This document shows positions 1,075 to 43,009 of a stretch of DNA of 64,000 nt, in pieces. The number at the start of each line of letters is the position of its first letter. Within the stretch, counting starts at the first letter, position 1. Made by a program: the position numbers and the translations under genes. The notes under the pieces are model-generated. The model was given only the letters and a program-made list of their open reading frames with translations. It ran no database searches and was not told where the DNA came from. The DNA comes from Yuukianura sp. NJ FZ-2021 (taxonomy: Eukaryota): assembly GCA_046563655.1 (NCBI GenBank), contig CM102287.1:8680001-8744000 (forward strand). The letters are read 5' to 3'.

Positions 1075-2173
1075 ATGAACAAAACCGAAATGGTGTGGGA
1101 AGGAGAACGAAACTTTTATAAACTTCGTCACAGACTTATGCTGAGAGAAAAAGTTGAAGCCATAGGAGTGGCATTGTTCGATTTCGTAAGTCTATCTTTT
1201 CTGAATTTTGAAATATTTTGAAAATTGGTTTCCGAAATTTTGAAATTAGTACGTTTTGGATTTTACAGATTGTAGGTTTCGTTGGTACAATTGCTTGTGT
1301 AGCGCAAATGGTTGAAACTAAGTCGTTTTTTCCATTTGTCGCTCCCGCTGGATACGTTGATGACATGGAAGGTTAGTTCAAACCAAAATTTTCAAAAGCA
1401 CAAATTCAGGCTTGATTTTTGGAAAAAAAACTTTTCGGAAAATATTTTTCAAAATTTTAGGACCAATTTCAAGACGACTGCTGTACTTGTCATTCTACTG
1501 TACTTTCCCATCACTTCTCATTTGCTCCATTCTCCTGCTCGCTGGAATTTTGATGGTAAGATTTTGAAAAACTTTGAAATGAAAAACAAGATTTGCACAA
1601 AATTCAGAAACTACAGCTCTTTTCTTTTCATTTTAGCGACGAACTTGCTGCATCAGTTTTTGGTACATCCCGAACGCACTTGGATTGATTCTTCACACAG
1701 CGCTTGTCGTAATCGGCGCAGTTTTGAATGTGTGGAGAGTGTATGCCATCAGTGGCTCACTTCTGGCTTTTAGAATCCTTCTTCTTGCGAAAATCTACAA
1801 TTTCCAGAGAGCTTTAGCATTTGACCGAGCTGAAGACAAGTTGCTTGATGACCTTTGTCTCCAGAGCCTGGAAGTTGAAGAAGCATGTCGACGACAATTC
1901 GATGACATGCGTAAGGTCAATGGTGAAATTGTCAAAGAAACGAAGGCGGTCACCCGAGCTGTTCTGAATGACATAGGTCAAACTGTTGCCAATGATGGTC
2001 CAGCTTCACAACGTCCAAACGTAAACTCCTGCCCAGTACAAGTCGCTGTACACCCAAATACAAGTCATAGTGCTGCTGGAAACCATTTGGAACATCCGCC
2101 CGCCTACAATTCTCAATTGTTTTCTGCTGCCAAGCAACGCGCAGTTCATTTGAATAATTCAGTTGTGCCCTAA
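1075..2173 (+). CDS. Four-TM membrane protein, LAPTM/DUF4728-like, with a C-terminal PPxY motif (4 exons)
   Basis: Phase-compatible exons 1075-1185, 1269-1371, 1461-1555 and 1637-2173 with GT-AG introns. Four hydrophobic segments; the tail contains HPPAY. Confidence 0.6.
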
Positions 2174-3367
2174 ACATATTAACGAAATTCAACTTTTTCT
2201 TTTACAAAGGATTGTAAAATCTTCTTTCTGTTTTAAAAAGTAATGTAAAATTTTTCATTCAATATTTTAAAATAGATTATGACAAGCAAAAGTGAAAGAA
2301 GAAACTGAAATTTGCATTGGTAGAAGTTAAACGCCAAGTAAAATTAACTACAAATTTTTGTTGGGCTTTGTGCTAAGAGAACATGGTCAATATATAAAAG
2401 ATTTTAGAGGGCGTGAAAATTATGTAAACGAAAAAAGCATAAAAGTGAAAAAGTGATTCTGAAACCTCAACATTAAGATTTTGAAATTCCTTCTATTAAA
2501 TAGTTTGATTTCTCTAAAATTTGACACCTTAACTGCATTCTTACAATAATTTTATGTAGTTTAATAATGCTAAGAGCTTTGCAAACTGTTTTAAAACTCA
2601 ACCTCCCCCTACAGCCTTGTTTAAAAAATCAATTGTTAAATTGTTATAATTCAAAGAAAACGTTGATATTCACACAAAAGAAAATTAAAAAACTCAGTTT
2701 TCGAAAGAAATTTTATTGCTACGAGTCAAACGCCAAGTGAAAATTAATAAATGTCTTCCTTTGATTTTGACGAAGAGGAAAACAAATAGAGAATAAGTTT
2801 AGTAGGAATAAAAGTGTAATTTGCAAAAAAAAATGTAATAATTTTAATTTACTTTTTATTTTTATTTAGTTAATTAAAGTTGATTTAACCTTTAAACTCA
2901 TTATTTAAATTCGTTATTCAGGAGGAACTCAACATTTTTTAAAGTACTGTTTATTAGTTTTTGGCGTCACATCGACACCATTTTCTCGTTTCTGATTGGT
3001 CGGAGATATTGAAAATGGAAATGAGCGCGAAACTCCACTTGTCTCTTTTGTTTACATTCGCGCTCATTTCTAACCTCACCTCATTCATTTTAATTTGTTT
3101 TAGTAATTAGTTTAATTTAATTAACTCTATACGATTTTTTCAACAGTCAGTGATTCGAATTTAAAGATCAGTTTTGGCTACAACAGCTGCTTCCCTTGGA
3201 AACTGTTTAGACTTCGCAAGCGGCGGTGGACGGAGGGAACCTTTCTTGTCGTGTATGAATTTGAGTGACAGTTTGAAAAGCTCATTCCCAATTTCACGCT
3301 CAAAATGTTTCTCTCAAAAATTGTTTTTGTAGTGTTAGTAGTTCAGTTGATAATTTTAGAGGTTATA

Positions 3368-3992
3368 ATGGTTAGTGCCGGAAGAGCGTTGGTCACTACG
3401 AAAACGTCAAATTCTAAGTTCAGGTTTGGGGGAATCGATACGTTTGTCAGAGTCATCAGTGGCGCTGCGTCAAGGTGAGCGTGCGACGGATTTACGTTTG
3501 ATATAGTTTGAGGTCTTTGGCGTTTTGTTGATTTTATGTCTGAATAATTTGTAGGAATGAAGGATTAGTGAATAAATTGTTACAAGTCACACCTGAAGCG
3601 CCGCTGAACCGGAAAATCGTACGCATACCAACTGCCAGCTCGAGCACCCGACGACCATCAGTATCAGAACTAGAACTGTTGTCAGATACCGAACCAATTC
3701 GACAGTGAGAAAAGCATATGAATTACAATACCCTGACTAGCTACATCATCTATTACAACTTCTCTATCATGCTTTGTTCTGTTGGTCCTGAGCTAATTGA
3801 TTAACCTAAACTTTCTGTTACTTTTTCGCTTTGTAAAGTAGTAGACGACGGCCTGAATCCATCGCCTTGACTTCTTCAATAAGCAAGCGCCACACTCGTC
3901 ATCCGCCTGCTCGTGTTCCTATCGCTGGTTTTCCAGAGAAAATGTTTCCTGCCATTACTGGTGTAGCTAACACATTGGCACGACATCTGTAA
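3368..3992 (+). CDS. Hypothetical basic Arg/Ser-rich protein, about 136 aa (3 exons)
   Basis: Exons 3368-3474, 3555-3704 and 3839-3992 join in frame through two phase-2 GT-AG introns (MVSAGRALV...NTLARHL*). No family recognised. Confidence 0.4.
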
Positions 3993-4183
3993 GGCAATTT
4001 CAAAATCTGCACTTGGTTTTGGGGTCGTTGACCCTCTGTTTTCTTTTCTTTGTTCTTGTACTTTGGTTTTCATTTCTTCTTTGTGTCTACATTTTATTTT
4101 CCAACCTATAAACTTAAACTTCAATTATATAAATCAATAATTCTGAAAACGTTTTCCACATTTGTTCATAAAACGAAAACATC

Positions 4184-4955
4184 ATGTTGCTACTTTGTGT
4201 TTTGATATATCTTTGTCAATTTTACAGTTCTGGTGGACAGCAAACCGCTACTCCAATTAATGGTACCGGGTTGGGCGGCAGACAGTTGAGCGAGGATAAT
4301 AATCCGGATAACCTGCCTATATTTGGTAGAGTACTGAAACCATATGAAAATTTCAACGGCACTAGCCCAGGTAAACTGACAGCTAAATCATACTTTACTA
4401 CATTAACATTTAACGTTACGCCACAAGTTTCCTTTATCCTTTGTCTGAAACAATCTTTGTCAGCTCTCGAGTGCTTCGTCTGTGATTTCGACAACCCCAA
4501 CTGTGTCGATATGAATTCTACCATGGACAGGTTCAACGGAAATGGTAGCATTCAATACAAAGTGAACTGTCGGAAGAAGTACGGTGAACTGGCAAGATAT
4601 TGTGGCAAGATCAAAATGAAGAACGGACGTGTAAGGCGAGACTGTTGGTTAGAACTTCCTGGGGGTTACAGCGCTGGATGTACGTTTGGGAAAATGGAGT
4701 ATTACGGCAAATACTTTCCCGTTGAATTCTGTTTGTGTAACAACACTGCAGGTACGAAAATTCCAAACAACTGATGTGAACCAAGTTGCTAATGTTGTTT
4801 AGTACACAAGTCTTGGTTTTTCAGCGCAAAATGCAAAAGTTCCTTGCAATACGGGGTGTCGGCTGTTAACACATTCTCCAACCTATTTCGTGCTTTTCCT
4901 TCTGATGTATTTTCTCATGAACGACTGGCGACATCAATTGAAACTTCGTCTTTGA
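4184..4955 (+). CDS. Ly6/three-finger (quiver/sleepless-like) GPI-anchored protein
   Basis: Signal peptide; ALECFVC...C...YC.KI...RRDCW...C...FCLC...PCN; hydrophobic C-terminal tail. Exons about 4184-4370, 4465-4751 and 4825-4955. Confidence 0.75.
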
Positions 4956-6322: not shown

Positions 6323-7056
6323 GATTCAATGCTGACTTGCGTAGTTGTTATTTGAGGTTACCAAGCGATTGCCGCCATTATTTCCTTGATGCCTGAGGGA
6401 ATACGGAAGCAATGGAAGTCAAAACACTTGAGTCATGAATGTTCTGATAATTTTCTGTATTTGACTCTGTGTGTTTACATATCTTACAAGACTAAAACCT
6501 AACCACACAGACAAATTGAAAAGTCACGTTAGGATAACCATTCGATCAACTGCTTAGGATTGGTTTGGTTCAGACTTGGATGATGTCCCAAGCTTAACCT
6601 TGTTATTACAATTTCTTGCTGACGTGGTTCATATTGTCTCGTTGGTTTCTCTATTTGAAAAAGTTCAATTGTCAATGTATACAGTCCCTTGAAAAGCTTT
6701 CAGTTGATTTTTGTCTCTCTTTGCAGATAGTCAAGTTCAAAGGTCTCAATCAACATCACAAGTGCTCACACTACTTTACAACTTACTAATTGCTACAACT
6801 CTACACAATTGTGCTGTTTGAACAACTTTTGATGCTCCTCCAAGTAACGTTACTCAAAACATTCGGAACCGTTAGGCTGTCAATGGCTACAAATCACGAC
6901 TGTGACAATACGAAGGTGACTCCTGCTCCGCTCATCTCCTACTGCTGCCACACGGCATTCCTGGATACACCAATTTCCAGCCCAACATTTGGCCTGGATC
7001 CGTAAAATTTCAATTTCAATTGTTTTTAAACCTAATTTTTCAAATTCAAATCAACC

Positions 7057-7622
7057 ATGACCAGACACTTCATCTTCATCATTGTGCTGTCACTCTTGGC
7101 ATCGTCAATTCAAGCATATCCTACTGTCACTACTGCTAACGACGACCAACCACCTTCATCAACCTTACCAGAAACACTGCCAAAGGAGGGAGTAGCAAGT
7201 CCAACTATTGGGGACTTTTTAATCAATTTTAACATCAAGCATTTGTAAGTTTTTTTTTGAAATCGAGATCAAAATTTTGAAAGTTTTGAAAACGTTTAAT
7301 TGTCGTTTCCGTTTCTTGCAGGCTCCCGAACTCTCCATTTCAAAGATTCTTGATCCACCTTGTACGTGTGCTGGCAGTATCATTGGTCGTGTCTCTCTGG
7401 ATGTTTTTAGTGATTCAACTGTTCGTGAGCCTTGGAAAATGCTGCCAGTTTCTATGCAAGTATTTTCATAAGAGAGACAACGGAGGAGAAAGAGACGCCG
7501 AAGAGACGCTGAACAAAGATTCAGTTGAGATGATAAAGAAAGCCATTGGGAAGGAAGGAGCTTACCAGAAAAACTATGTAAACCGAGCACACTCTATGCC
7601 TATTCTTGTCTTTAAGAAATGA
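7057..7622 (+). CDS. Small type I membrane protein of unknown function (2 exons)
   Basis: Signal peptide MTRHFIFIIVLSLLASSIQA, a phase-2 intron at about 7245-7321, TM segment VLAVSLVVSLWMFLVIQLFVSL followed by KCC. Confidence 0.6.
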
Positions 7623-7630
7623 ACTGTTTG

Positions 7631-7715
7631 TGACCTTTTGAAAAAATGTCGTTGACCTTATGACCTCTTCAAAAAATGTCGTTAAGGTATGACCTTTTCA
7701 AAAAATGTCGTTAAG
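7631..7715. repeat. Three-copy ~30-bp tandem repeat in the 3' flank
   Basis: tgaccttttcaaaaaatgtcgtt-type unit present three times. Confidence 0.8.
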
Positions 7716-7967
7716 TTCAATGGGTTTTATGAATTCTTTTTATGATTGTTTAGAAATAGCGGTTCCCTTTGTTCTTTTTGCCTTGTGGTAAAAACCTAAC
7801 TTATTTTGGGCTTACCCTTCATTTTGTTTTGTACGTTTCCATTTTTTTTTTAGAAAACTAGGTTGAAATGACTCTTTACATTAAAAGTGTATGTTTAAGT
7901 TGGAAATTGAAATTCAAAAGTAAACAATTTTAAAAACTTACATTTTATGAACTTGAAAACTTCAATT

Positions 7968-10389
7968 TTAGTACTGATTCCCAATTTTGGTTCGGATGAG
8001 GTCCAGTATAGATTGGCAGTTGTGGTCCGTTCCAGCAGTCGTTACGAAAAGCGTCTTCTGCTTTGATTTGGCCCCCTGTAGGATTTAAGAACAGTTTTTA
8101 AAAGTTAGTTTTCCATTTTAGATTTCTAATTTCCAATTTTTGAAAAATTGTTTGAAGCTTACACTTAATTGAATGTCTCCCTTCTTGACTCCAAGAACAT
8201 CCGAAAAGAATTTGACAATTGCCAAATTCGCTTCGCCATCGACGGGAGGAGCTGAAATCTGGAGCGAAACGGCTTCTGCTGACACATCTATTAAAGTCCA
8301 AAGTTGATTAAGTGTTCAACCAATGAGATGTCAAAGGTCAATTCGTTTTAGTGAAGGACTTACCTGTAATGCAGTTGAACTTTGACCCGGGTTTGACCTG
8401 AAGCGGTATAGCAACTTCACCGTTCTTTGTTAATGTCAGCGGAGGAGTTCCAGCCACGGCAGCATCTTCCTGGATGAGTTTAAACAAAATTTAGAAAGAA
8501 GCACATTCAAAAAACACTGCTGTTTTTTTTTTCGAAAAATTGGTGTAAATAATACTGAAACGGATTTCGACTCAGATCTGAACTAATTTGAAGAACTTTA
8601 TTGCTAAATAAGAGTCATTAATTGAACTTTTAAAAAGATAGAAATCTAGTCAGAGTCGTCTTCATTCGGTGGAGTCACTGGAGGTGTTGGTTTGTCCGCT
8701 TCAGCAGCAGCAGCACCCTCTGGATCTTCACTGATAAATTTTTCCCAGTTCTTAAGTCTATCGTCTCGCTCTGCATCCGTTTCTTCAATTTTGTATTTCG
8801 TATGTCCATCCCAAATAAATGCAGAAATCTTCTTGCCTCCGAAGAATCTTCCATCAAATAACTTCACAACTCCATCAGCCTCTTCCGGTGAACTCATGTA
8901 GATTTGCAGAATTCCTTCAGGATGACGATCAAACACAACGACTTTCTTGCAAGTACCGCACTTTCCAGCTTCTTCTCGGAAGTCTTGTTGATACTCCAGG
9001 ATCAGACTCACATCGGCATCAAAATCGCTTGGAGAAAAAGCGTTCTGGACAACGACGATCCGCTCATGCTTTGATCTCTCTCCACGCATTTTCTCTGGTT
9101 TCCATTCAAAAAGCTTCTCTTGCTGCTTTTTCAACTTTTCCTTGTCCTTGCGTTTCTTTGATTTTGGTTTCTTGGTTGGATCGTAGGCTCCTTTCAGTTG
9201 AAAATGTGCCCGTTCTACAGAAACTTTGCGACCTCGAAGGTCAAATCCATCTAGGATTTGAAGTGCTAGCTGGACTGATTCGATTTTGATGTAAGTGCAG
9301 AGTCCGTCGCCTTTGAGGTTTCCTTCTGGGTCGGTATATAATTTCAGTTTGGGATGTCCACTGACAGGGTCCTTCATGACAAGTCCACATTTTGACATGA
9401 ACTCGCTGAATTCTTCTTCAGTGATGTCAAGCGGAAGGTTGGAGACGTAGACTTTCGTGTTCTGAGTTTCGTCCAACTCAAACCATTCAGCAGCAGTAGG
9501 AGCTTTCCGTTTCAGCGATTTGTCTTCTTTCACGTGAGGAGGTTTTGGATTTGGAATGGTAGCGGCGTTGACAGGAGCAGCTGAGTTTGAGTTCGACGAT
9601 CCATCGGCATTGGTTACACCGTAACTCAATTGATAACGAACGAGGAACTCTTCGTCTAGTTTAGGAAACCAAGCTGATTTCGTTGCGTCATACTCGAATA
9701 CGGTTCCATCCTGAGGATCTGTGTAATTGTACGTGGATCCATCAAAGGTGACTTGATTCCCAGCTACTTTGAATGGTTTCCATTTTTGCAGGCTTTCCTC
9801 CCAAGTAAATTCATTTCCGCTTGCTGGATCTTTGTAAGTGTAAACACCGTCAACCATGGAGCAGTTCGGATTAGCGGCAGTATTTTCTTCTGTTTTCGCC
9901 GTTGTTCCATTGGGACCAGCATCTTCAGATTTATCATCGTCTTTATCGTTGACTGGTGGAGGAGAAGGTGAATCCATTTCTTCTCGGTCGTCTTCCATTG
10001 TTCTATAAAACGAATCAAAATACTTCAACCAAACGATCTTATAATTGAAACATGAACTAAACCTTGATTTCATTACTCTAAAACTCCTCCAGTCCAATTA
10101 CTTACACAAAGCGGTGTATGATTTGGGTATTTTGAAATCCTGTTCCTGTTGAAAAACGGCGCAAAGAAGATGGAGGTGAAAGGCGTTTGAAAATTCGCTT
10201 TTGGAAAGAACTCGTAGAAGTGTCTTCACTCAGATTCAGATGAACACCTTATTTGTTTTCGTATATAAATCCAATTTATGACTGTTTTAACCAATTACGT
10301 AATTGTTAATTAAAGTAAATCACCTTTGACGTTGACCGGTTTTGTTTTTGTTTTGATTTCGATGCAGCAGAGCCAGAACCTTTGGGCAT
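7968..10389 (-). CDS. C15orf40: UPF0235/DUF167 (C15orf40/YggU-like) protein, 4 exons; not in the ORF track
   Basis: Exons 10389-10324 (MPKGSGSAASKSKQKQNRSTSK), 8469-8364 (…VAIPLQVKPGSKFNCIT), 8287-8163 (DVSAEAVSLQISAPPVDGEANLAIVKFFSDVLGVKKGDI) and 8075-7968 (GAKSKQK…). All phases are compatible. KPG and APPxxGEAN motifs are typical of DUF167. Confidence 0.85.
8646..9998 (-). CDS. HTATSF1: HIV Tat-specific factor 1 homolog (TatSF1/Cus2/barc), a U2-associated splicing factor; CDS has no introns
   Basis: RRM (NTKVYVSNLP…KGDGLCTYIKIESVQLA) plus a UHM (RHPEG…DGRFFGG…WDG). The true ATG is probably 9998, just after the acceptor TTTTATAG. Confidence 0.93.
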   Translation of the reverse strand: MEDDREEMDSPSPPPVNDKDDDKSEDAGPNGTTAKTEENTAANPNCSMVDGVYTYKDPASGNEFTWEESLQKWKPFKVAGNQVTFDGSTYNYTDPQDGTVFEYDATKSAWFPKLDEEFLVRYQLSYGVTNADGSSNSNSAAPVNAATIPNPKPPHVKEDKSLKRKAPTAAEWFELDETQNTKVYVSNLPLDITEEEFSEFMSKCGLVMKDPVSGHPKLKLYTDPEGNLKGDGLCTYIKIESVQLALQILDGFDLRGRKVSVERAHFQLKGAYDPTKKPKSKKRKDKEKLKKQQEKLFEWKPEKMRGERSKHERIVVVQNAFSPSDFDADVSLILEYQQDFREEAGKCGTCKKVVVFDRHPEGILQIYMSSPEEADGVVKLFDGRFFGGKKISAFIWDGHTKYKIEETDAERDDRLKNWEKFISEDPEGAAAAEADKPTPPVTPPNEDDSD

Positions 10390-11135
10390 GTTCGTGCAAC
10401 ACAACCGATTTATAGTCGTGGAAAATGTGCTGACCTTAGACAATGAATTCATTCAACACCCGTACGTGCACCACCCTCGGCGAGTAGGTAATTGTTGCTT
10501 CTAAATTAATTGACAAATCAATTGGATTTGGAGGAACAGTTCGATTTTTTTCAAAAACAAAAAACGAAGACTTGCCAAAAATAAATTTCAACTTTCAAAA
10601 CTCGCGCGCTTCTCTAGTTTTAGATTCGGCAACCTACCGCCGCAATACAACTTTCACCCGAACACTTTCACTTTATTAGACAACTAGCTAAGAATTCCTA
10701 CCTTTTTAGTTAATCATTAATTAAAAGTGTAATAACTATAATTCCAGTGTAGTTTTGAAAATTGGTTTTAATTCGTGCCCATTCACCTTCACACAGTTAA
10801 AAGCTAGTGAAAGTTATTAATTACATGGGTTCATTTTTATGATATTGTTGTGTTTACGTTTAAAATACGCTACGATTAAAATTAGTAGTTAAATTGTGTG
10901 TGAAGAGGTTAAAATGTTTTAAAATGACGACGCTTGAGAAGAGTTTACAGTTGCAGTTTTAAAAGAACTGACTAAATTATAGTTTTCTGCGGATGGTGTG
11001 TTCTTGTGTTACTTGCAGAATTTTAATTAATACAAGTTCTACTTGAGTTGTTCCTGTTCAGTTTTTAAAAAGTTAAAATTAAAAAAACACATTAGCATGT
11101 TCATTCAGCTGGAATCCACGATAGTTCAAGAATTC

Positions 11136-12982
11136 TTATTCATCGAGACAGATTGTCCGAACGAGAACTTCAGTGACCGAGTAGGGATCACAATTTGAAC
11201 TGGGTCGACGATCTTCCAAGTAGCCCTTCCTCTCTTCAGCAACTGATCGTGGAATACGGATACTGCAGCCACGGTTAGCAACGCCAGCAGAAAAGTCATG
11301 AATTGACGACGTCTCGTGGTGGCCGGTCAGACGACGTTCGTTGTCTTTTCCTTGTTTTGGATCGTAGGCCTTGATATGACGAAGATGGTGTCGGGACAAC
11401 TTGTCAATTGCTTTTTCAATGTCCAAGATTCCGTTTTCTTCTCGCATGGCCTGTAATCAAAGTGAACGAATCAGTAATAAGATGTCGGTCCGAATAACAC
11501 TTTTCGGGCCAAAAATTTTTTTCGGTCCGAATAACTTTTTCGGTCCGAATCAAAACGGCGAGGACAAGAACAATGGAAACTCACCTTGGTTGAGAAGTTT
11601 GTGTGGCATCCAGCACCGTTCCAGTCACCTGGAATTGGTTTGGGGTCCAAGGAAACGTTGACTCCGAAGTCTTCAGCTACACGGTGCAGAATGTACCGAG
11701 AGATCCACAGTTCGTCGCCCATGCTGATTCCTTCTGATGGTCCAATTTGGTACTCCCACTGAGCCGGCATCACCTCGGCATTGGTTCCGCAAATGTTGAG
11801 TCCAGCGTAGAGGCATGCGCGGTAATGTGATTCGACGACATCACGGCCGAAGACCTTGCTTGCGCCGACTCCGCAGTAGTACGGTCCCTGTGGTCCTGGA
11901 AACCCGTTCTTGGGCCATCCGAATGGATGCATGTCTTGGTCCAGCAGGGAGTATTCCTGTTCCATGCCAAACCATGGGACTTGGTCCTTGGCTTTGATCA
12001 TGGCGTCTAAGCAACTGTGACGGTTGTTAGTTTCTGAAAGTCAATACAAAATCATTAGTTACTCCGTAGTATGTACTTCGGCAGCATGTACTGCCAGTAT
12101 TCTGAACTTTGAGCTCACCTGTTGGCTTCTTGTTGTACTTGTAGGTATCGCAGAGAACGAGCTTGTTGTTTCCAAGCAAAAATGGATCTTTGTACATAGC
12201 TACTGGGTACAAATAGGTGTCCGAATTGGCTCCCTCTGCCTGATAAGTTGAGCTTCCATCGTAGTTCCACACTGGCAAATCTGCAATTTCGAAAAAAAAA
12301 GTTATGACCTTTCGACCTCTGACGCAACTTTACGAAATTGTTTGTGTTCCGCTAGTTTTGCATTTTTGAAAAGCTCGCTCTATGAAATTGCAAAAATCCT
12401 GGAACAAATTTTGCACGCACGATTCCAGGAATTGGCAAACCATTTATTTACATACGTTATTCGCATCAATTCGCGCAAATTTCACACCTATGCGTTCCAC
12501 GACGCCATTTTTTGTTTGCAAAATTGTTTCATCCGAGTAGACGTTCTTTGTTAGTTGACATTGTAGCTTTGTAGAAGCCAATTTGCAAAAATATTTGCAA
12601 ATTTCATTAGCTATGTTTTGCAAATCGAAGGTCATTAGCACTTATTTGTAAGTCGAGCCAATGACACCGCTCGAGTTTACAGAAAAGTTCAGCAATCAAG
12701 GTACGCTAAAGTTTGCATAGTTTATGGGTGGGAGTTTGCAAAATGAAATTGAAAAAATTTGCAATTTGCAAAAATGATGCAAAATTTTTGCAAAGATGAG
12801 ACTTATCAGTATTATTTACCATCTGCCTTCTTGGGAATGTAGTTGACTGTCCTAGTTTTGCAGCGAACGTATTCCCCTGTTCCGTCAATCCACACGTACG
12901 TAGCTTGACAAATGTTGTCTTCAATTGGAAGGCTCAAGTAGCGATCCAGGACTGCCTTGTTCGTGTAAATATTTGGCATCAT
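11136..12982 (-). CDS. GS: Glutamine synthetase (type II), 4 coding exons
   Basis: [59 protein letters not shown] and [10 protein letters not shown] motifs. Confidence 0.97.
11484..11551. repeat. Short degenerate tandem repeat in the last GS intron
   Basis: tcggtccgaat occurs three times plus one variant, separated by T tracts. Confidence 0.6.
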
Positions 12983-19696: not shown

Positions 19697-22163
19697 ATGA
19701 GTGTTTCTAATCCTAAAACTTTTCTAATAGTTTCCGTTTTAGTTGTAGTTGTAGCCGTAAGTTTACAAATTGTTCAAAAACTTCGGGATTTGGAGTTTGA
19801 TTTTTTTTTCGAAACTAGGAGAGAAATCCTCTTTTTTTTCTGATTTTTTTTCTTTAAATTTCAGTGCTGTCTGGTGCAAGCGTTTGATGACCAAGAACTG
19901 GCCAACATCGGTGCTTCTGGACCGCATCGCTCGGGCCTTCCGGTTCCGGAAGTCGGTAAATCAGCGCGTCCAGTCCCTGTACCCCTAATTGACCCAGCCC
20001 AGTTTCAGCCACCTCCGGGAACTCCAGAAAACGTTCCAGGGGCAGCGCCAATACAACCAGAAGCGCCAATTCAACCAGCATCACAGTCAACTGGAGCAGG
20101 AAGTGACAAATCTCAACCAGCAGTAGTGTCACAGCCTCAGCAAGTAGCAGCGGGACAATCAAATCCAAAACAAAATGGCGCTGCAGTTCCGCCTCAACCA
20201 CAACCTGTAACTTCGAACGGAGGCCAGCAATATGGTGGCGTTTCACAATCTATTCCGCCTGTCCCACCAGTTCAAGCGCCACCGCTGGACGGAAACGCTC
20301 GTTTCTTGGATATTTTGGCCAATGCCAAATGCTTGGGACAAAGTTTTGGACAACTTCATCCACAATTTCCAACATACAGCCAAAGTTGTTCCAATGAACC
20401 GAAAACGGTAGGTTGGAAAATAAAATTTCGGAAAATCTTGCAAAAAATTTCAAACAAAACCAAAAATTTGCAATTTTCTACAATTTTGACTTTATTTCTT
20501 TACAGTGTCGCTCGGTTTGCATGTTCGTGAAACTCGGATTGGTAGTCAATACTTTAATTTTTAAATATTTAAAAAACAATTTCAAAATAGTTTTTGAAAA
20601 CGAATTCGTAACTAATGAAATTTCTGCTAGATTGAAGAGAAAGGAGGAATCAGCGTCCCAAATTTTCTGAAATTTTGTGAAAATGTTTTCACTGGTCCAC
20701 TTGGGCAATTGGGAATTGAATTTCAGGGAGCCTCCAAATCTTGTCTAGCAAAACACAACTACCCGGGTAACATCGATGTTCAGGGAGGATGTCCAGCCTT
20801 CCAGCCTGTCATGAACTGCCTAACGGATTCCCTGCGACAGGTTAACCGATGAAACGATTTGACCAGTATTATTGTAAAAACTAGTTTTCTGCTTGGTTTT
20901 TCCTAGATTTGCAAGCTGGGCGAACCAAAAAAAGATGGCGGAAGAGGAAACAGCGGTGAACGTGGTAGCAATCCTAATGGTGTCTACAACGGTCAGCCAC
21001 GTCAAGGCTACAACGATGGAAAACCTGACAAGAAGGAATCAGGAGAACGCAAAGGTGGACTCTTTGGATATCAAGGTCAAGACAATCGTCGTAAAGAGTC
21101 CGGAGAACGTCAGCAACCTCCAAATCAAGGTTACCAGGCTCCACCTCCGCAACAAAATCAAGGCTCTGCATATCAGCGTCCACCGCCAACTCCAGCGCCA
21201 GCATATCAAGCTCCTCCTCCTCCGTCGAATCAGGCTCCACCAAAACCACCTCCGACGTCTTACCAAGCTCCACCAAATCCACCTCCGTCGACCCACCAGG
21301 CTCCACCAAATCCACCTCCGTCGTCCTACCAGGCTCCACCAAATCCACCTCCGTCGACCCACCAGGCTCCACCAAAACCACCTCAGTCGTCTTACCAAGC
21401 TCCACCAAATCCACCTCCGTCGTCTTACCAACCTGCACCAACTCCACCTCCGTCATACCAAGCCCTCCCGTCTCCACCTTCGTCATACCAAGCCCCTCCA
21501 GCTACCCCGCCATCATATCAAGCTCCACCGAACCCTCCTCAGTCATACCAGGGTCCCCAAAATCCACCTCCGCCATACCAAGCCCCTCCAACTGCTCCAC
21601 CATCATACCAAGCACCACCAAATCCACCTTCGTCGTACCAAGCACCGCCAACGCCTGCGCCTTCTCCAGGATACCAAGCACCTTCAGTTCCAAATGCAGG
21701 TTATTCGCTTCCCCCGCAAGGCCAAGGGTATCAACAACAGCCTCCGCAGGTACAACCATACCAACCACCTCCGCAGAATGCAGGATACCAGCAACCAGCT
21801 TCCCAAGGTCAATCGTACCAACAACCTCTGGTAAGTCAACCATTACCTTCCGGACAGGGATACCAAGCACCATCAGCTGACGCTGGTTTCGGATACCTGC
21901 AACCAGAAGGAATGATGCAGGGATACCAACAACCTCAGCAAGGTTACAACATTCCAGCGGCAGGGTATTCTCCAGACGTAGGTTCTGCTTTTGGAACTGG
22001 GCAAGGAGTAGGATTGACCAACAACCAACAAGCAACTGGCTTCGGCCAGCCCAGTATGCAAGGTTACAACTTTCCGATGGCAGCCTACAACCAGAACCCG
22101 CAAGTTCAGGGATACAACCCGCCAATGCAGGGTTTTAACCCTGCAGGTCAAGGGTACAACTGA
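19697..22163 (+). CDS. Secreted ~700-aa protein: Pro/Gln-rich region, OBP-like Cys domain and extensin-like repeats (5 exons)
   Basis: Exons 19697-19756, 19865-20407, 20506-20541, 20631-20840 and 20907-22163, all phase 0. Signal peptide; C-X25-C-X3-C-X44-C-X15-C-X8-C spacing; YQAPPNPPPSS repeats. Confidence 0.8.
21200..21660 (+). repeat. Coding tandem repeat with a ~33-bp (11-aa) unit
   Basis: caagctccaccaaatccacctccgtcgtcttac-like units encoding [Y/H]QAPP[N/K]PPPS[S/T]. Confidence 0.9.
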
Positions 22164-24698: not shown

Positions 24699-27600
24699 AT
24701 GTCGCTCTTCCAGAGCGAGGAAATGACCTTATGTCAGCTCTTCCTCCAATCGGAAGCAGCTTACGCATGTGTTTCAGAATTGGGTGAACTCGGTCTTGCT
24801 CAATTCAACGATGTAAGTCTAATTTCTACTGAAATCATCACCGTCTAATTGAAATTCATAACTTTTTGACAAATCGTAACTCCCTTTCCCGTCGGTTTTG
24901 TAGCTCAATCCAGACGTGAATGCATTCCAGCGCAAGTTTGTCAATGAAGTAAGACGTTGCGATGAAATGGAACGAAAACTTCGATACTTGGAGAAGGAAA
25001 TTAAGAAAGATGGAACACCAATGTTGGATACCGGAGAGAATCCAGATGCTCCACAACCAAGAGAAATGATTGATCTAGAGGTAAATGACAACAGTATTCT
25101 TCATCTAATTCGTGATTAATCAAAAATGGTCAATTGTTCCCCGGTCTGCACTGCTCTGAAACACTCCCGAGCTGTTGACCGAGCTAAACATTGCAGTTAC
25201 AGGTTTTAATTGACCGAAAATTACAAGAGTTACTTCATGCGTCTTCGCTGAGAACTTTGAGACAGACGTTATTTGCGGGCTCAAACAATTTTATTAATCT
25301 AAAGTTAATTTAATTGATATCTATTTGATTTAGGCCACTTTTGAGAAACTAGAAAACGAACTTCGTGAAGTCAACCAAAACGCAGATGCCTTGAAGCGGA
25401 ACTACTTGGATTTATCCGAACTTCGTGAAATTCTGCGTAAAACGCAAGTTTTCTTTGACGAGGTTAGAACTTGAACAGCGACGCACGTAAATCTACCAAG
25501 TTTCAATTAACTTCCTTAATTGTGAATGTTTTGCTTCATCGCTTTTCACATTTACCTCAAACTTAACCTCCGTCTTGGCCTAACTGCATTGTGCATTTTG
25601 AATTATCTCAATATGTAACTAGTCATTTTCTGCAAAATTGTCTTAATTTCAAATTTTTTTCATGCTTTTCGTTCTTTGTGTTGTGTGCATGTCAAAACTG
25701 TTTTAGTAGTGCCTTGAATTCATTTAGCGCACGACGTTTATGACGTTTGATGTTCAAAGGGAGAATTTGGATGGATATCACAGATGGGGGGAGGTGCCGT
25801 GTCACCAACAAGTTCACAAGATGACGAGAAGACTCGGTTGCTCAGTGACGAAGGACTAAGAGGTCAAGCTGGGTCATCGGTCAAGCTAGGGTTAGTGAGT
25901 CTTAGTCTTGTCCTAGTTTTAACATAACAAAAACGTTTTTTTAAACCGCATGGGCGTCTGGGGGTAAACTTTTCGGGAAATCGGTTCGGGTGGTGGTGGT
26001 CTTTTCGGTTTTAAAACCGAAAAATTTCATCTATGGCTGCTACTCGCTGTCCTTTTTCTAATGTCATGTCAAGTCTCTCTCGCATTCTGCTCCTGTTCTT
26101 TTTACTGTAAAAATCATCTTAATTTCTGAAGTTAAAACGCGATTGTAATTATATTCTCCTGACCTTGAAGCGCGAAGAGGCAGGAGGGGGTGATGGTCCC
26201 GTGCGCGGTCCGCTGGCTGATGAGCCATTTACTGGTAGAATTGCACCAGGCCAGGCACCCGCCCAACTAGGGTATGTCAACATCATCTCAACTTCCGAAA
26301 TTCTATGAATACTTGACTACTTTTCAATTCTTGACTAACTTTAAGCTTAAGTATAACTTAACTTAACAATTCTTAAGTTTCTTAAAGTTAAATTAACTTG
26401 AACTAAAGTATTATAAATTATCATTCGAAGGGATACGTACATGACATAAGTTATGGTGGCGGGTAGAGCGTAAGCGTGTAACTTTACTTTAGTTTTAAGT
26501 GAAAAATTAACTTGTCTAATTGATTTTTTCATTTGCATAAATGTCCAGTTTTGTGGCTGGAGTGATTTTGCGGGAACGGCTGCCAGCGTTTGAGCGTCTT
26601 CTGTGGCGCGCTTGTCGAGGAAACGTTTTTCTGCGTCAATCGGATATTGAAAAGCAGTTGGAGGATCCATCAACGGTAAATTATTTTGAGCAAACGCATT
26701 GAAGTAATTAGAACAGTCGATTAATTGATGTTTGGTTTGATTTTAGGGTGACAAAGTGTCAAAAACTGTTTTCATCATTTTCTTTCAAGGCGATCAACTC
26801 AAGACTCGAGTGAAGAAGATTTGTGAAGGATTTCGAGCAACTTTGTATCCATGTCCAGAAACTCCAGCAGAACGGAGAGAAATGTCACTTGGAGTTATGA
26901 CGCGGATTGAAGATTTGACTACAGTTTTGTCTCAAACGACAGATCATCGTCACCGTGTCCTCGTAGCTGCTGCGAAGTCAATCAAAAATTGGTTTATCAA
27001 AGTCCGGAAAATTAAGGCCATTTACCATACGCTGAACTTGTTCAATTTGGATGTGACGCAAAAGTGTCTCATTGCTGAGTGCTGGATTCCAGTTGCGGAT
27101 TTGGAGAAAATTCATGCAGCACTTCGTCGTGGAACTGTAAGTGTTTAACTTTAAAAACTAAAAAAAGTTTGCTAATGAAAAGTTTTATGATAATTCAAAT
27201 TCTTGGTATTTTTTAGGAGCGTTCTGGATCTTCTGTGCCGCCAATTTTAAATCGGATGGAGACGACAGTGGATCCACCAACTTTTAATCGATTGAACAAG
27301 TACACGCGTGGATTTCAGAACTTGATTGATTCTTATGGAATTTCATCTTACCGTGAAGTCAATCCAGCTCCATATGCTATCATTACGTTTCCATTTTTGT
27401 TTGCTGTCATGTTTGGTGATGCTGGGCACGCCCTTATTATGATCATGTTTGGAGCTTGGATGATAGTGTCGGAGAGGAAGTTTGAGGGAAAGAAAGGGAG
27501 TGAGGTAACTTCACTTAAGTTTTCATGATTTTGAATTTTCGAAATTTTGATGACACTGATTTGATTTGAATTTCAGATTTGGAACATTTTCTTCGGCGGT

Positions 27601-29030
27601 CGTTACATCATCTTCTTGATGGGAACGTTTTCACTCTACACTGGAATCATCTACAACGACGTCTTTAGTAAGAGCATGAACGTCTTTGGTTCTCATTGGT
27701 TCACCAACAAATCACGAATAACGACGGAGCAGATACTCAATTCCAAGGAACATTTGATGCTGGATCCAAAGGACTGCTATGTCCAGTACCCTTATCCCAT
27801 TGGAATTGATCCTGTTTGGCAGGCAATTGCAAAAACGTCAAAATTTTATAAACTGTTTCTGATTTGAACTTGTTTTTAACATTTTGTTGACTTTTTAGGT
27901 TGCTGAAAACAAAATTGCGTTCTTGAATGCCTACAAGATGAAGATTTCAATTATCATTGGAGTGTTGCACATGTTTTTTGGAGTTTGCCTTTCCATTTGG
28001 AATCATCTTTACTTCAAGCGTCTCATCAACATCTTCTGTGAATTTATTCCACAAGTCATCTTCCTCCTCTTTCTATTCTTCTACCTCTGTATCCTCGTGT
28101 TTCACAAGTGGGTTTGGTATGGGCCGCTGGGTGGAGATGTGTCTGGACCGTACTGTGCCCCTTCAATTCTAATTACGTTCATCAACATGGTTCTTTTCAA
28201 GGGAGCAGATGATCCACCTCCAGGATGTAAAAGTAGTCTTCTCTATACTGGTCAAGAAACTGTCCAGAAGATTCTTGTACTCTCGGCACTCGCCTGCGTC
28301 CCCTGGATGCTCTTTGTCAAACCGTTAATACTGTGGAATCAGCACAGGACGAAGGTACAAATTTCAACATTCGAACATTTAATTGTGAATTTTGGAATAT
28401 AATTGTTTGTTTGTTATTTTAGCCTGGACACGTTTATGCTGGATCGGTTGTAACACATGACGAAGAAACGGCTCTAGCATCAAATGGAAATTCGCCCCAC
28501 GGAGCATCTCCTGGACAATCTCATGGTGGCGGTGGTCACGGTCATGGGCACGGTGAAGAATTTGAACTTTCAGAAGTCATGATCCATCAAGGAATTCATA
28601 CGATCGAGTACGTCTTGGGATCTGTGTCACATACGGCTTCGTACTTGCGTCTCTGGGCTCTTTCATTGGCGCATGCACAACTCTCCGATGTACTTTGGTC
28701 AATGGTGATGAAAATGGGATTTGGCAGTACTACGGCTGGATTCGGAGCAATCATGCTGTACTGTGTGTTTGCGTTCTGGGCAGTTCTTACAGTGAGCATC
28801 CTCGTTCTTATGGAAGGACTCAGTGCATTTCTACATACTCTTCGTCTACATTGGTAAACAAACGATCAAGGAATTCGACTTTCGAAATTTTGGTTGAGGA
28901 TAAAATTAAATCGTTTCTTGTTGTTTCCAGGGTCGAATTTATGTCAAAGTTTTACTTGGGTCAAGGATACCCCTTTGCTCCGTTTAGCTTCAAGGACATG
29001 CTGGCTGCTGCGGAAGCAGCAGAAGAATAG
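24699..29030 (+). CDS. Vha100-1: V-type proton ATPase V0 subunit a (Vha100-1/ATP6V0A1-like), multi-exon
   Basis: [59 protein letters not shown] and [11 protein letters not shown] motifs. The exact paralog assignment is tentative. Confidence 0.95.
25127..25290 (+). ncRNA. Intronic H/ACA guide RNA (SNORA79/ACA65-like), predicted to target U6 Psi31 and Psi86
   Basis: Hairpin 1 (ggtcaat/attgacc), H box aaatta at 25218-25223, hairpin 2 (gagtt/ggctc; cgtct/agacg) and ACA at 25285-25287. Pockets gttcc/tttta and cttcat/atttgcg each lie 14 nt from their box. Confidence 0.8.
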
Positions 29031-41063: not shown

Positions 41064-43009
41064 TTAATGTTCGAAATGGACTTGTTTCCTGGAACAAAAA
41101 TTTTGAACTTGCGAAGCGTAATCGAATTTTCGACTTTCTCCATCTCTAGCTCTGTATACTGCCCACCGATCGTAAATCGGAATTGAAGTGTCAGCTAAAT
41201 GCCAAAGATGTCCGAACTCCCGCTGACTTCTTAGCTGTACTTGAAACTGTTCATGGAATTCATAAGCACTGGAACCGACCTCGCCAAGGTCAATGCCCAT
41301 TCGCTCTATTTCTGGAGTTACACGCAAACGTAACGCTGGAACCAAGTTCATCGCACCCAGCAGTATCAGTGTTACAACAAAACTCCAAGCGAATCCAGCC
41401 GCAGTGTCGACCAATTGATGAAGCTGAGGTGAAAAAAAACTTAGACAACTTTTTTTCGAAAATGTATTCAAAATGTTTCCTTGTTTTTTATGTTACGATT
41501 TGCATGTAGTTTCCTTCCAGCCATCCACCTTCAATCGCTGGAGCGTATTTCTTTTGTGCAAAAATTCCAGTTAGCAAGCAGCCCAGGATTCCTCCAACTC
41601 CGTGAACAGCAAAAACGTCCACCGGATCGTCCAATCTTGAGCGTTCCATTAACTTCGTCGAAGCGTTGCAGACAAGAGCGCCCAAACTTCCGAAAACTAG
41701 ACTGCGTAATGAAACAAATCAAAAATTTCAAAAAAAAAAATTCAAAAAACATCGTTAGACCTATTGATTCCCATTTTTTTTTGTTTTCTACCTGCTTGCA
41801 GGACTGACGAATCCGCAAGCCGGCGTGATACAAACCAGCCCTGCGACTGCGCCAGAACAAAATCCAAATGCTGACCATTTTCCTTTATGCAGGAAATCCA
41901 GAAAAGTCCACACGATTCCGCCAATAGCTCCTGATAGATTTGTCGTCAGACAAGCATTTGTTGCTTGTAAGTTCGGAGCGAGTGCTGGATATAAGTATTT
42001 CAAAATTTCGAAAATATTTTCAAAATTTTGAAAGTGAAACGGACCTGAACCACCGTTGAAGCCAAACCAGCCGAACCAAAGTATTCCAGTACCGAGGACA
42101 GTATACGTCAAGTTGTGCTGTTTGATTTGGTCACAACAGGAACACGGTGCTCGTTGTCTGGGTCCAAGCAGCAAAGCATACGCCAACGACGCTGCGCCGC
42201 TACTAACATTTGTAAAACTTAGATTTTCAAAAAATTATCATAATTTCAAAAAAATTTTAACTCAGAGAGCAAATCTGAGTACCTAACATGTACTGGTGTT
42301 CCTCCGGCAAAGTCCAAACCTATGTTAAAATTAAAGTTTACAATTAAAAACAGTACATAATTAACTTTTTTAATTTCAGAACACTTACTACCTCCCAGTT
42401 TAGCTGACCATCCATTGGGATTCCAGGTCCAGCAGGCCAAGAAATCATAGACAAGAGTCGTCCAAGCAAAGATGAACAGCGTCGTGGGTAGAAACCGAGC
42501 TCGTTCTGCGCCTGCTCCAAGCATCAGCGCTGGAGTAATCGCTGCAAACATTCCTTGGTACAAACAGAACAGCAGCGCTGGAATTTTGGACGATCCGACT
42601 GACGGTTGATCAAAAACATCTTGGAGAAACAAATGCTGGAAGTCTCCTATTAGGAAATTCGCTGTCGAGCTGAACGTCAGTGAGTACCCAATTAAAAACC
42701 ACTGAAATTCAGATTTCAAAATTTCGAAAAATTGTCAAATTTTCAAATTTGTTACGCTTAACTTACTTGAAACGAAACAACAGCCATAGACCACAGACAG
42801 AGTAGCATGACGCTGAGAGCGTTCTTGGCCCGGATCATTCCGGCATAGAAGAATCCAAGCCCAGGAATCATCAGCCACACCAGTGCAGTGCAAATTAGAA
42901 TGTAACTGATGTCGCCGGGGTCAAAGGTCACATAGCCTTCTGGATTCTCGGTGGTCGCCATTTCTTCTGATGAGTCAGGGTCTGAACCCGGAAAAACTAT
43001 GTTCGCCAT
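41064..43009 (-). CDS. Ammonium transporter of fungal MEP (Amt2/MEP) type, 7 coding exons
   Basis: [98 protein letters not shown] and ERMGID motifs. Six phase-compatible GT-AG introns. Confidence 0.95.

Follow-up and report, generated by a model that had tools for sequence, protein, structure and literature searches.

The window analysed here is a stretch of 64,000 nucleotides (nt) of the genome of Yuukianura sp. NJ FZ-2021 (GenBank assembly GCA_046563655.1, contig CM102287.1, positions 8,680,001 to 8,744,000). It contains, on one strand and in close proximity, a gene for the splicing factor HTATSF1 (Tat-SF1/Cus2 family) and the exons of a gene for a small protein of the DUF167 family, also known as UPF0235 and including C15orf40 and YggU. 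All coordinates of this locus are given in window numbering and refer to the minus strand; the features are collected in Table 1. The HTATSF1 open reading frame (ORF) is intronless and consists of 450 codons plus stop, with the ATG at 9998-9996 and the stop codon at 8646-8644. Pfam recognizes a first RRM at residues 183-259 (RRM_1, E 1.6e-11), and residues 95-427, which span both RRMs, match the human HTATSF1 chain 6y50_q from structures of the U2 small nuclear ribonucleoprotein (snRNP) with an E value of 2.8e-96. The second RRM, which is of the UHM type, is not called in the Pfam scan of the ORF; it corresponds to residues 307-403, which resemble the isolated domain of human HTATSF1 in the chains 2dit, 6n3d and 6nsx (E 1e-24 to 1e-26). 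A search of the protein collection returned 1122 of 7141 candidates at E <= 0.001, the best 120 of which were inspected. The named proteins among them are mostly HTATSF1, with up to 57% identity, and the others are hypothetical or unnamed. All named HTATSF1 matches are from hexapods, the springtail Allacma fusca included, and the top matches (76%, 64% and 67% identity) carry no protein name. This agrees with a hexapod-like arthropod as the probable source of the sequence. These matches of sequence and structure support the assignment of the large ORF to HTATSF1.

The HTATSF1 stop codon is followed after 42 nt by an AATAAA hexamer at 8602-8597, which lies 127 nt before the acceptor of DUF167 exon 2 and is the sole canonical polyadenylation hexamer from the HTATSF1 stop to the DUF167 stop. 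Its position between these two landmarks is as the initial annotation had it. No marks of a retrocopy, that is, neither a target-site duplication nor convincing flanking direct repeats, were seen around the locus. Near HTATSF1 there is one pair of 13-nt low-complexity repeats, and a run of ten A residues is found about 70 nt past the AATAAA.

Table 1. Features of the HTATSF1/DUF167 locus in window numbering (a slash marks a splice boundary)
Feature	Coordinates	Strand	Basis
DUF167 exon 4, stop 7970-7968 included	7968..8075	-	gene model
DUF167 exon 3 (SAPPVDGEAN, LGVKK core)	8163..8287	-	gene model, Pfam, structure matches
DUF167 exon 2 (EDAAVAG...KPGSKFNCIT; acceptor catccag/)	8364..8469	-	gene model, homologue alignment
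DUF167 intron 1, 1854 nt, predicted to hold the entire HTATSF1 coding sequence and poly(A) signal	8470..10323	-	gene model
AATAAA poly(A) hexamer	8597..8602	-	sequence match
HTATSF1 (Tat-SF1/Cus2 family) coding sequence	8644..9998	-	ORF, Pfam, structure and protein matches
Predicted 103-nt intron in the HTATSF1 5' untranslated region (GTAAGT ... TTTTATAG)	10003..10105	-	prediction
ATG-free 218 nt, candidate HTATSF1 5' leader	10106..10323	-	ATG counts
TATATA hexamer in intron 1, preceding the HTATSF1 ATG by 269 nt	10262..10267	-	consensus match only
Proposed DUF167 exon 1, 22 codons, MPKGSGSAASKSKQKQNRSTSK, donor AAG/GTGATT, phase 0	10324..10389	-	donor and start-motif scans, homologue N-termini
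Glutamine synthetase last exons, upstream, same strand	11136..12040	-	context

The DUF167 gene is modelled with four exons that are separated by GT-AG introns of compatible phases and add up to 405 nt in frame (134 codons), introns 2 and 3 being 76 and 87 nt long. Exon 3 by itself scores 43.8 bits against the Pfam family DUF167 (PF02594), the cut-off of which is 30.9, and gives weak matches to the solved structures of YggU (1n91) and of the UPF0235 protein PF1765. The spliced model aligns from end to end with eight eukaryotic homologues, in which the motifs KPG[AS]K, APPVDGEAN and LGVKK are kept in this order, and its best match in the protein collection is 69% identical. Family and homologue matches thus support the assignment of the downstream exons to DUF167/UPF0235. 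For both genes the identities given in the initial annotation agree with the Pfam, structure and homologue matches. The archaeal protein listed as 'UPF0235 protein PF1765' is represented by ten solved entries (PDB 9unt and nine others), which suggests recent structural work on the family; a literature search on C15orf40, DUF167, UPF0235 and YggU yielded no paper on the function of the protein among the matches listed. On the 3' side of exon 4 a variant hexamer, CATAAA, is found at 7949. Further on, the 3' ends of DUF167 and of a convergent small ORF on the plus strand (7036-7622) have a 29-nt tandem repeat between them (window 7631-7715; 87% matches over 2.9 copies). This ORF resembles a protein with a signal peptide or transmembrane segment.

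Exons 2-4 contain no methionine codon, and going upstream from exon 2 the reading frame meets a stop at 8490, so that the exon bearing the start must lie farther upstream. Within 8643-8470 none of the ATGs reaches a usable donor. Between 11135 and 8470 we scanned every ATG that is open to a phase-0 GT, a donor being counted as good if it agreed with at least 7 of the 9 consensus positions. Among the 167 combinations of ATG and phase-0 GT, ten have a good donor. Seven of these ten are ATGs in the HTATSF1 frame that share one donor at 9012; the three outside that frame are 10389>10324, the in-frame 10452>10324 and one 6-codon ORF. The donor after 10324 is the best phase-0 donor of the region and agrees with the consensus at 8 of 9 positions.

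The N-termini of homologues bear on the same question. The eukaryotic homologues found with exon 3 and P0124 open with MGKK or MPKK and continue into a linker rich in Ser and Pro. A profile built from seven homologues was compared with 1.84 billion representatives and gave 15087 matches at E <= 0.001, of which the best 150 were examined. The anchor motifs are present in 119 of the 150, and in 68 of these 119 the motif M[GPSA][KR] stands 15-70 residues before KPG. M[GP]K accounts for 44 of the 68, MPK being the commonest form (33), and many of the remaining anchored representatives have comparable basic starts, for example MPQK, MPNK or MSSKK. The distance from the initial Met to KPG has a median of 40 residues and ranges from 31 to 56; in the window model, which starts with MPKG, it is 47. 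Only when the exon at 10389-10324 is included does the DUF167 model have an N-terminus of the eukaryotic type. When both strands of the 64-kb window are scanned for an M[GP]K start that stays open for 10-60 codons up to a good phase-0 donor, 10389 is the only instance; of 2000 shuffled versions of the region, 9 contained this pattern. Thus, the exon at 10389-10324 is probably the first exon of DUF167. The initial annotation had named it as the only suitable candidate, and outside the HTATSF1 ORF it is indeed the sole good one, as supported by the donor scan and by the N-terminus of the family. The frame of exon 1 remains open, without a stop, back to a further ATG at 10452, and window 10452-10390 would add 21 residues (MNSLSK...). 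A transcript starting upstream of 10452 would have an extended DUF167 N-terminus and no out-of-frame upstream ORF.

At the level of the gene model, the HTATSF1 coding sequence and the AATAAA fall within one intron of the host gene (10323-8470). The HTATSF1 coding exon occupies 1353 nt of this intron (about 73%), with 325 nt before and 174 nt after it. That HTATSF1 sits on the same strand inside intron 1, as put forward in the initial annotation, is supported by the geometry of the exons and the N-termini of the homologues, and we consider this same-strand nesting likely. The best explanation of the locus overall would be a host/nested pair on one strand, in which a complete HTATSF1 gene resides in an intron of 1854 nt; we put the probability of this at roughly 0.7. 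For DUF167 mRNA to be made, the polymerase would have to initiate upstream of 10389 and traverse the complete HTATSF1 unit, poly(A) signal included. Splicing of the exon-1 donor to the acceptor at 8470/8469 would then remove the HTATSF1 sequence as part of the intron. The HTATSF1 mRNA would have its own start within intron 1, lose the 103-nt leader intron (10105-10003) and end past 8602-8597. If the gene model is correct, any DUF167 pre-mRNA passes the HTATSF1 poly(A) signal, and we infer that DUF167 exons 1-4 are joined in RNA and that splicing of intron 1 competes with cleavage at this signal. On the upstream side, the DUF167 promoter and leader would have no more than about 290 nt at their disposal, given an AATAAA at 10677 after the glutamine synthetase gene.

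Where the HTATSF1 mRNA would begin can be approached through the part of intron 1 that precedes its ATG. The candidate leader is free of ATGs, and its last 40 nt (10145-10106) have a good acceptor at one end and the donor TTGT/GTAAGT at the other. In the near-identical 219-nt segment that was tested (10323-10105) there are 0 ATGs compared with about 3.4 expected (P about 0.025), and the ATG-free run from 10389 to 10073 ranks 15th by length among 953 on the minus strand. The only ATGs between exon 1 and the HTATSF1 start, at 10073 and 10053, both lie inside the predicted leader intron, the acceptor of which (10003/10002) is four bases before the HTATSF1 ATG. Such a pattern, as in a translated leader, fits either an HTATSF1 start within the intron or a transcript that stays unspliced at the exon-1 donor, and appears to fit splicing from 10324 to 10145 less well. 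From the glutamine synthetase stop to the HTATSF1 ATG, the minus strand has just two TATA-like hexamers, both recognized by consensus alone, at 10414 and, inside the intron, at 10267. The TATATA at 10267 is a weak hint of a separate core promoter for HTATSF1. DRE, Ohler motif 1 and E-box patterns are absent between 11136 and 9990; a scan for promoters and terminators of the bacterial type, which is irrelevant to this locus, gave shuffle-level results only, and no Rfam family reached the gathering score in the whole window. Taken from these features, the start of the HTATSF1 mRNA is most likely its own site within intron 1, at about 10320 to 10150.

Instead of having two start sites, the genes might share a promoter upstream of 10389, as the initial annotation had envisaged. 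Exon 1 would then be spliced to 8469 to give the DUF167 mRNA, whereas for HTATSF1 it would be spliced to 10145 or to 10002 or be left unspliced. HTATSF1 transcripts would end at the intronic poly(A) site, and the ratio of the two products would be set by the competition between splicing and polyadenylation, which could feed back on HTATSF1. Several features of the locus are in line with a common leader: the acceptor at 10146/10145 (tttttcaacag/) is well formed and followed 40 nt on by a strong donor; exon 1 is just 325 nt from the HTATSF1 ATG, so that a separate promoter would be crowded; the only ATGs from 10717 to 10073, at 10452 and 10389, are both in the DUF167 frame; and loci of like design have been described for ChAT/VAChT (PMC7524744) and CPNE1/RBM12 (PMC2568002). 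However, exon 1 carries the DUF167 start codon, with an A at position -3, and in an HTATSF1 mRNA this AUG would open an upstream ORF of 27-41 codons in all three splice variants. This ORF would have 35 codons and end 2 nt before the HTATSF1 AUG, 41 codons and overlap that AUG, or 27 codons and end 204 nt upstream of it. Because exon 1 holds an AUG, sharing it would not be harmless to translation of the nested ORF. Moreover, the lack of ATGs in 10323-10146 (0 compared with 2.9 expected, P about 0.04) would be unexplained if splicing from 10324 to 10145 were the rule, and in the closest related contig, L001, HTATSF1 stands next to glutamine synthetase without a DUF167 exon. The hints in the sequence thus run mildly against a shared exon, we lean towards separate, closely spaced start sites, and a common promoter with a shared first exon appears unlikely. 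Still less likely, in our estimate, is the full combination of a single start region for both genes, mutually exclusive transcript fates and a built-in negative feedback on HTATSF1. If it applied, U2-dependent removal of the 1.85-kb intron would destroy the HTATSF1 message and give the DUF167 mRNA, and a transcript left unspliced and cleaved at 8602-8597 would become the HTATSF1 mRNA. A core splicing factor would then be under negative feedback, because HTATSF1 is a U2 snRNP factor.

Returning to the host/nested pair with separate starts, we surveyed related loci by one scan of metagenome contigs with the HTATSF1 alignment. It gave 24 loci, most of them with short flanks; informative sequence is limited to L001, with 2.3 kb upstream and 5.9 kb downstream, and L007, with 2.7 kb downstream. 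L001 is syntenic with the window: the last exon of glutamine synthetase is 99% identical over 106 residues and HTATSF1 follows 730 nt later, intronless and 77% identical to that of the window over residues 112-450. In a blastn comparison of L001 with the window, no non-coding similarity was found beside HTATSF1, and the match stops at the HTATSF1 stop codon. With the spliced DUF167 model, P0124 and ten eukaryotic homologues, tblastn detected no DUF167 exon in the 24 mostly short-flanked loci; the matches it returned were noise (E 0.86 on L024; E 0.29 and on the wrong strand on L007). The HTATSF1 of L001 (positions 1563-3360 of that contig; 76-77% identity), the closest relative, sets in at a point corresponding to about residue 112 of its counterpart in the window. 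The first 111 residues are missing, and no trace of the N-terminal region, which comprises an acidic stretch and a double Y-x-Y-x-D...W motif, was found in the 9.3-kb contig; this HTATSF1 may be a truncated paralogue or reflect a lineage-specific shortening. A different layout is seen in L007 (1337-8545), where the exon for HTATSF1 residues 46-118 sits 5.7 kb upstream of the remaining gene. Between the two parts lies, on the same strand, an open frame of 335 codons (3548-4552) with a WW-domain match below threshold, and HTATSF1 in the L007 organism may itself host a nested gene.

A number of points weigh against the nested arrangement. Synteny in related species, to which the initial annotation had looked for confirmation, did not provide it: beside HTATSF1 in L001 there is neither an MPKG-like exon between the two genes nor a DUF167 exon in the 2.3 kb upstream and 5.9 kb downstream. 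The nested layout is not conserved in that contig, which gives no sign of selection on it. With its 22 codons exon 1 is short, of low complexity and rich in S and K; as to the M[GP]K criterion, it was chosen after the homologues had been seen and can lend support but is no rigorous test. In addition, the depletion of ATGs upstream of HTATSF1 is only marginally significant, and the TATA-like hexamer at 10414 is only 25 nt before the exon-1 ATG and, if functional, would put transcription initiation at or downstream of that ATG.

Two of these points, the brevity and S/K-rich composition of exon 1 and the fact that the arrangement is missing from the closest contig, would also be expected if exon 1 had arisen as an ORF by chance, in which case the DUF167 exons would represent either a startless copy in decay or a gene whose first exon lies beyond the region examined. 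We regard this as very unlikely, since all three DUF167 exons have open frames bordered by canonical splice sites in canonical phases, the conserved motifs are intact, and a complete glutamine synthetase gene that ends at 11136 leaves little room upstream for another first exon. The donor statistics, the M[GP]K shuffles and the N-terminus statistics of exon 1 argue against it as well. Concerning L001, either that lineage lost both parts of DUF167 together, or the lineage of the window gained both; the joint absence of exon 1 and exons 2-4 agrees, if weakly, with the view that they belong to a single gene.

A further possibility is that exons 2-4 are expressed from HTATSF1 transcripts, whether through trans-splicing at 8469, through translation of a second cistron or in a fusion that uses the in-frame donor at 9012. 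The distance of about 127 nt from the AATAAA to the exon-2 acceptor is reminiscent of the spacing in nematode operons, and the HTATSF1 ORF does contain a phase-0 donor, GAT/GTGAGT, at 9012/9011. However, an mRNA consisting of exons 2-4 would have no start, as these exons are without Met, and the downstream cistron lacks the start of its own that follows the trans-splice acceptor in nematode operons. Trans-splicing is also disfavoured by the exclusively hexapod origin of the best named HTATSF1 homologues, among the best 120, since hexapods are not known to have spliced-leader trans-splicing. As for a fusion, joining at 9012 would cut the second RRM/UHM (residues 307-403), and PF02594 is found in none of the best 120 HTATSF1 homologues. 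Conversely, none of the 11 long DUF167 representatives that were scanned (eight of the best 150 with at least 215 residues, and three of about 200 residues) contains an RRM; their partners are ZZ+UBA_5, RWD+RING or Prp3_C. Expression of exons 2-4 from HTATSF1 transcripts is in our view extremely improbable. In P0256, P0282 and P0285 the DUF167 domain is C-terminal, behind a ZZ+UBA_5, RWD+RING or Prp3_C domain, and these long predicted proteins may be real fusions or merged adjacent genes. Prp3_C is a spliceosomal domain, and its pairing with DUF167 may be coincidental.

Genes nested in introns of other genes are known from several systems, and the host/nested pair preferred here can be compared with them. 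In the cholinergic locus, the entire VAChT ORF is contained in one exon inside ChAT's first intron, on the same strand, and in ticks exon 1 is common to ChAT and VAChT transcripts, a configuration that the paper calls similar to that of other metazoans (PMC7524744). The locus described here resembles it in that the nested ORF is in a single exon, in the first intron of the host and on the same strand. It differs in that there both proteins act in one pathway and the sharing of the exon is documented by cDNA, whereas here a U2 snRNP factor is combined with an unrelated DUF167 protein. The candidate shared exon, moreover, contains the start and 22 codons of the host, which would act as an upstream ORF on the nested gene. 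CPNE1 and RBM12 are unrelated coding sequences with a common promoter and common 5' exons, and more than 20 such human pairs are reported; the sharing was established by reverse transcription PCR and expressed sequence tags (PMC2568002). Unlike exon 1 here, their common region is described as 5' untranslated region and so is apparently non-coding (PMC2568002). At H13/Mcts2, polyadenylation of the host within its intron is promoted when the gene nested there is transcribed (PMC13309782). Host/nested pairs are common, and in mammals the two genes share a strand about as often as they lie on opposite strands, the nested gene being found preferentially in 5' introns (PMC11694760). The mammalian cases so described involve long introns and methylation-controlled CpG-island promoters, in contrast to the intron of 1.85 kb here, about 73% of which is nested coding sequence. 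A search of the literature for C15orf40 together with HTATSF1 did not find this pairing. Thus, host/nested pairs as such are known, and the locus would be similar to ChAT/VAChT if the exon were shared; what is new, within the literature searched, is the pairing of HTATSF1 with DUF167.

Elsewhere in the window, two further observations were made. The stretch 20878-22163 is richer in G+C (0.49), has a strong strand skew and contains long overlapping open frames, without a match to a Pfam family. Within it, at 21231-21652, lies a tandem repeat with periods of 33, 66 and 30 nt that on the plus strand would encode a Pro-rich, PPxPPPSYQ-like repeat. Furthermore, genes for glutamine synthetase (window 11136-12040), an ammonium transporter and V-ATPase subunit a lie within 32 kb, the other two occupying the stretches 26747-28857 and 41067-42734. 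All three are tied to the handling of nitrogen or ammonia, and their clustering is possibly due to chance.

If the gene model is right, each DUF167 transcript would read through a whole splicing-factor gene and its poly(A) signal within an intron of 1.85 kb. Nesting on one strand is common and loci with shared exons have already been described, so that the main value of the finding lies in careful annotation of the locus and not in a new principle. It would nevertheless provide a small and tractable locus in which splicing against intronic polyadenylation, and interference between start sites on the same strand, can be studied, and as the enclosed gene encodes a U2 snRNP factor, a test for feedback suggests itself.

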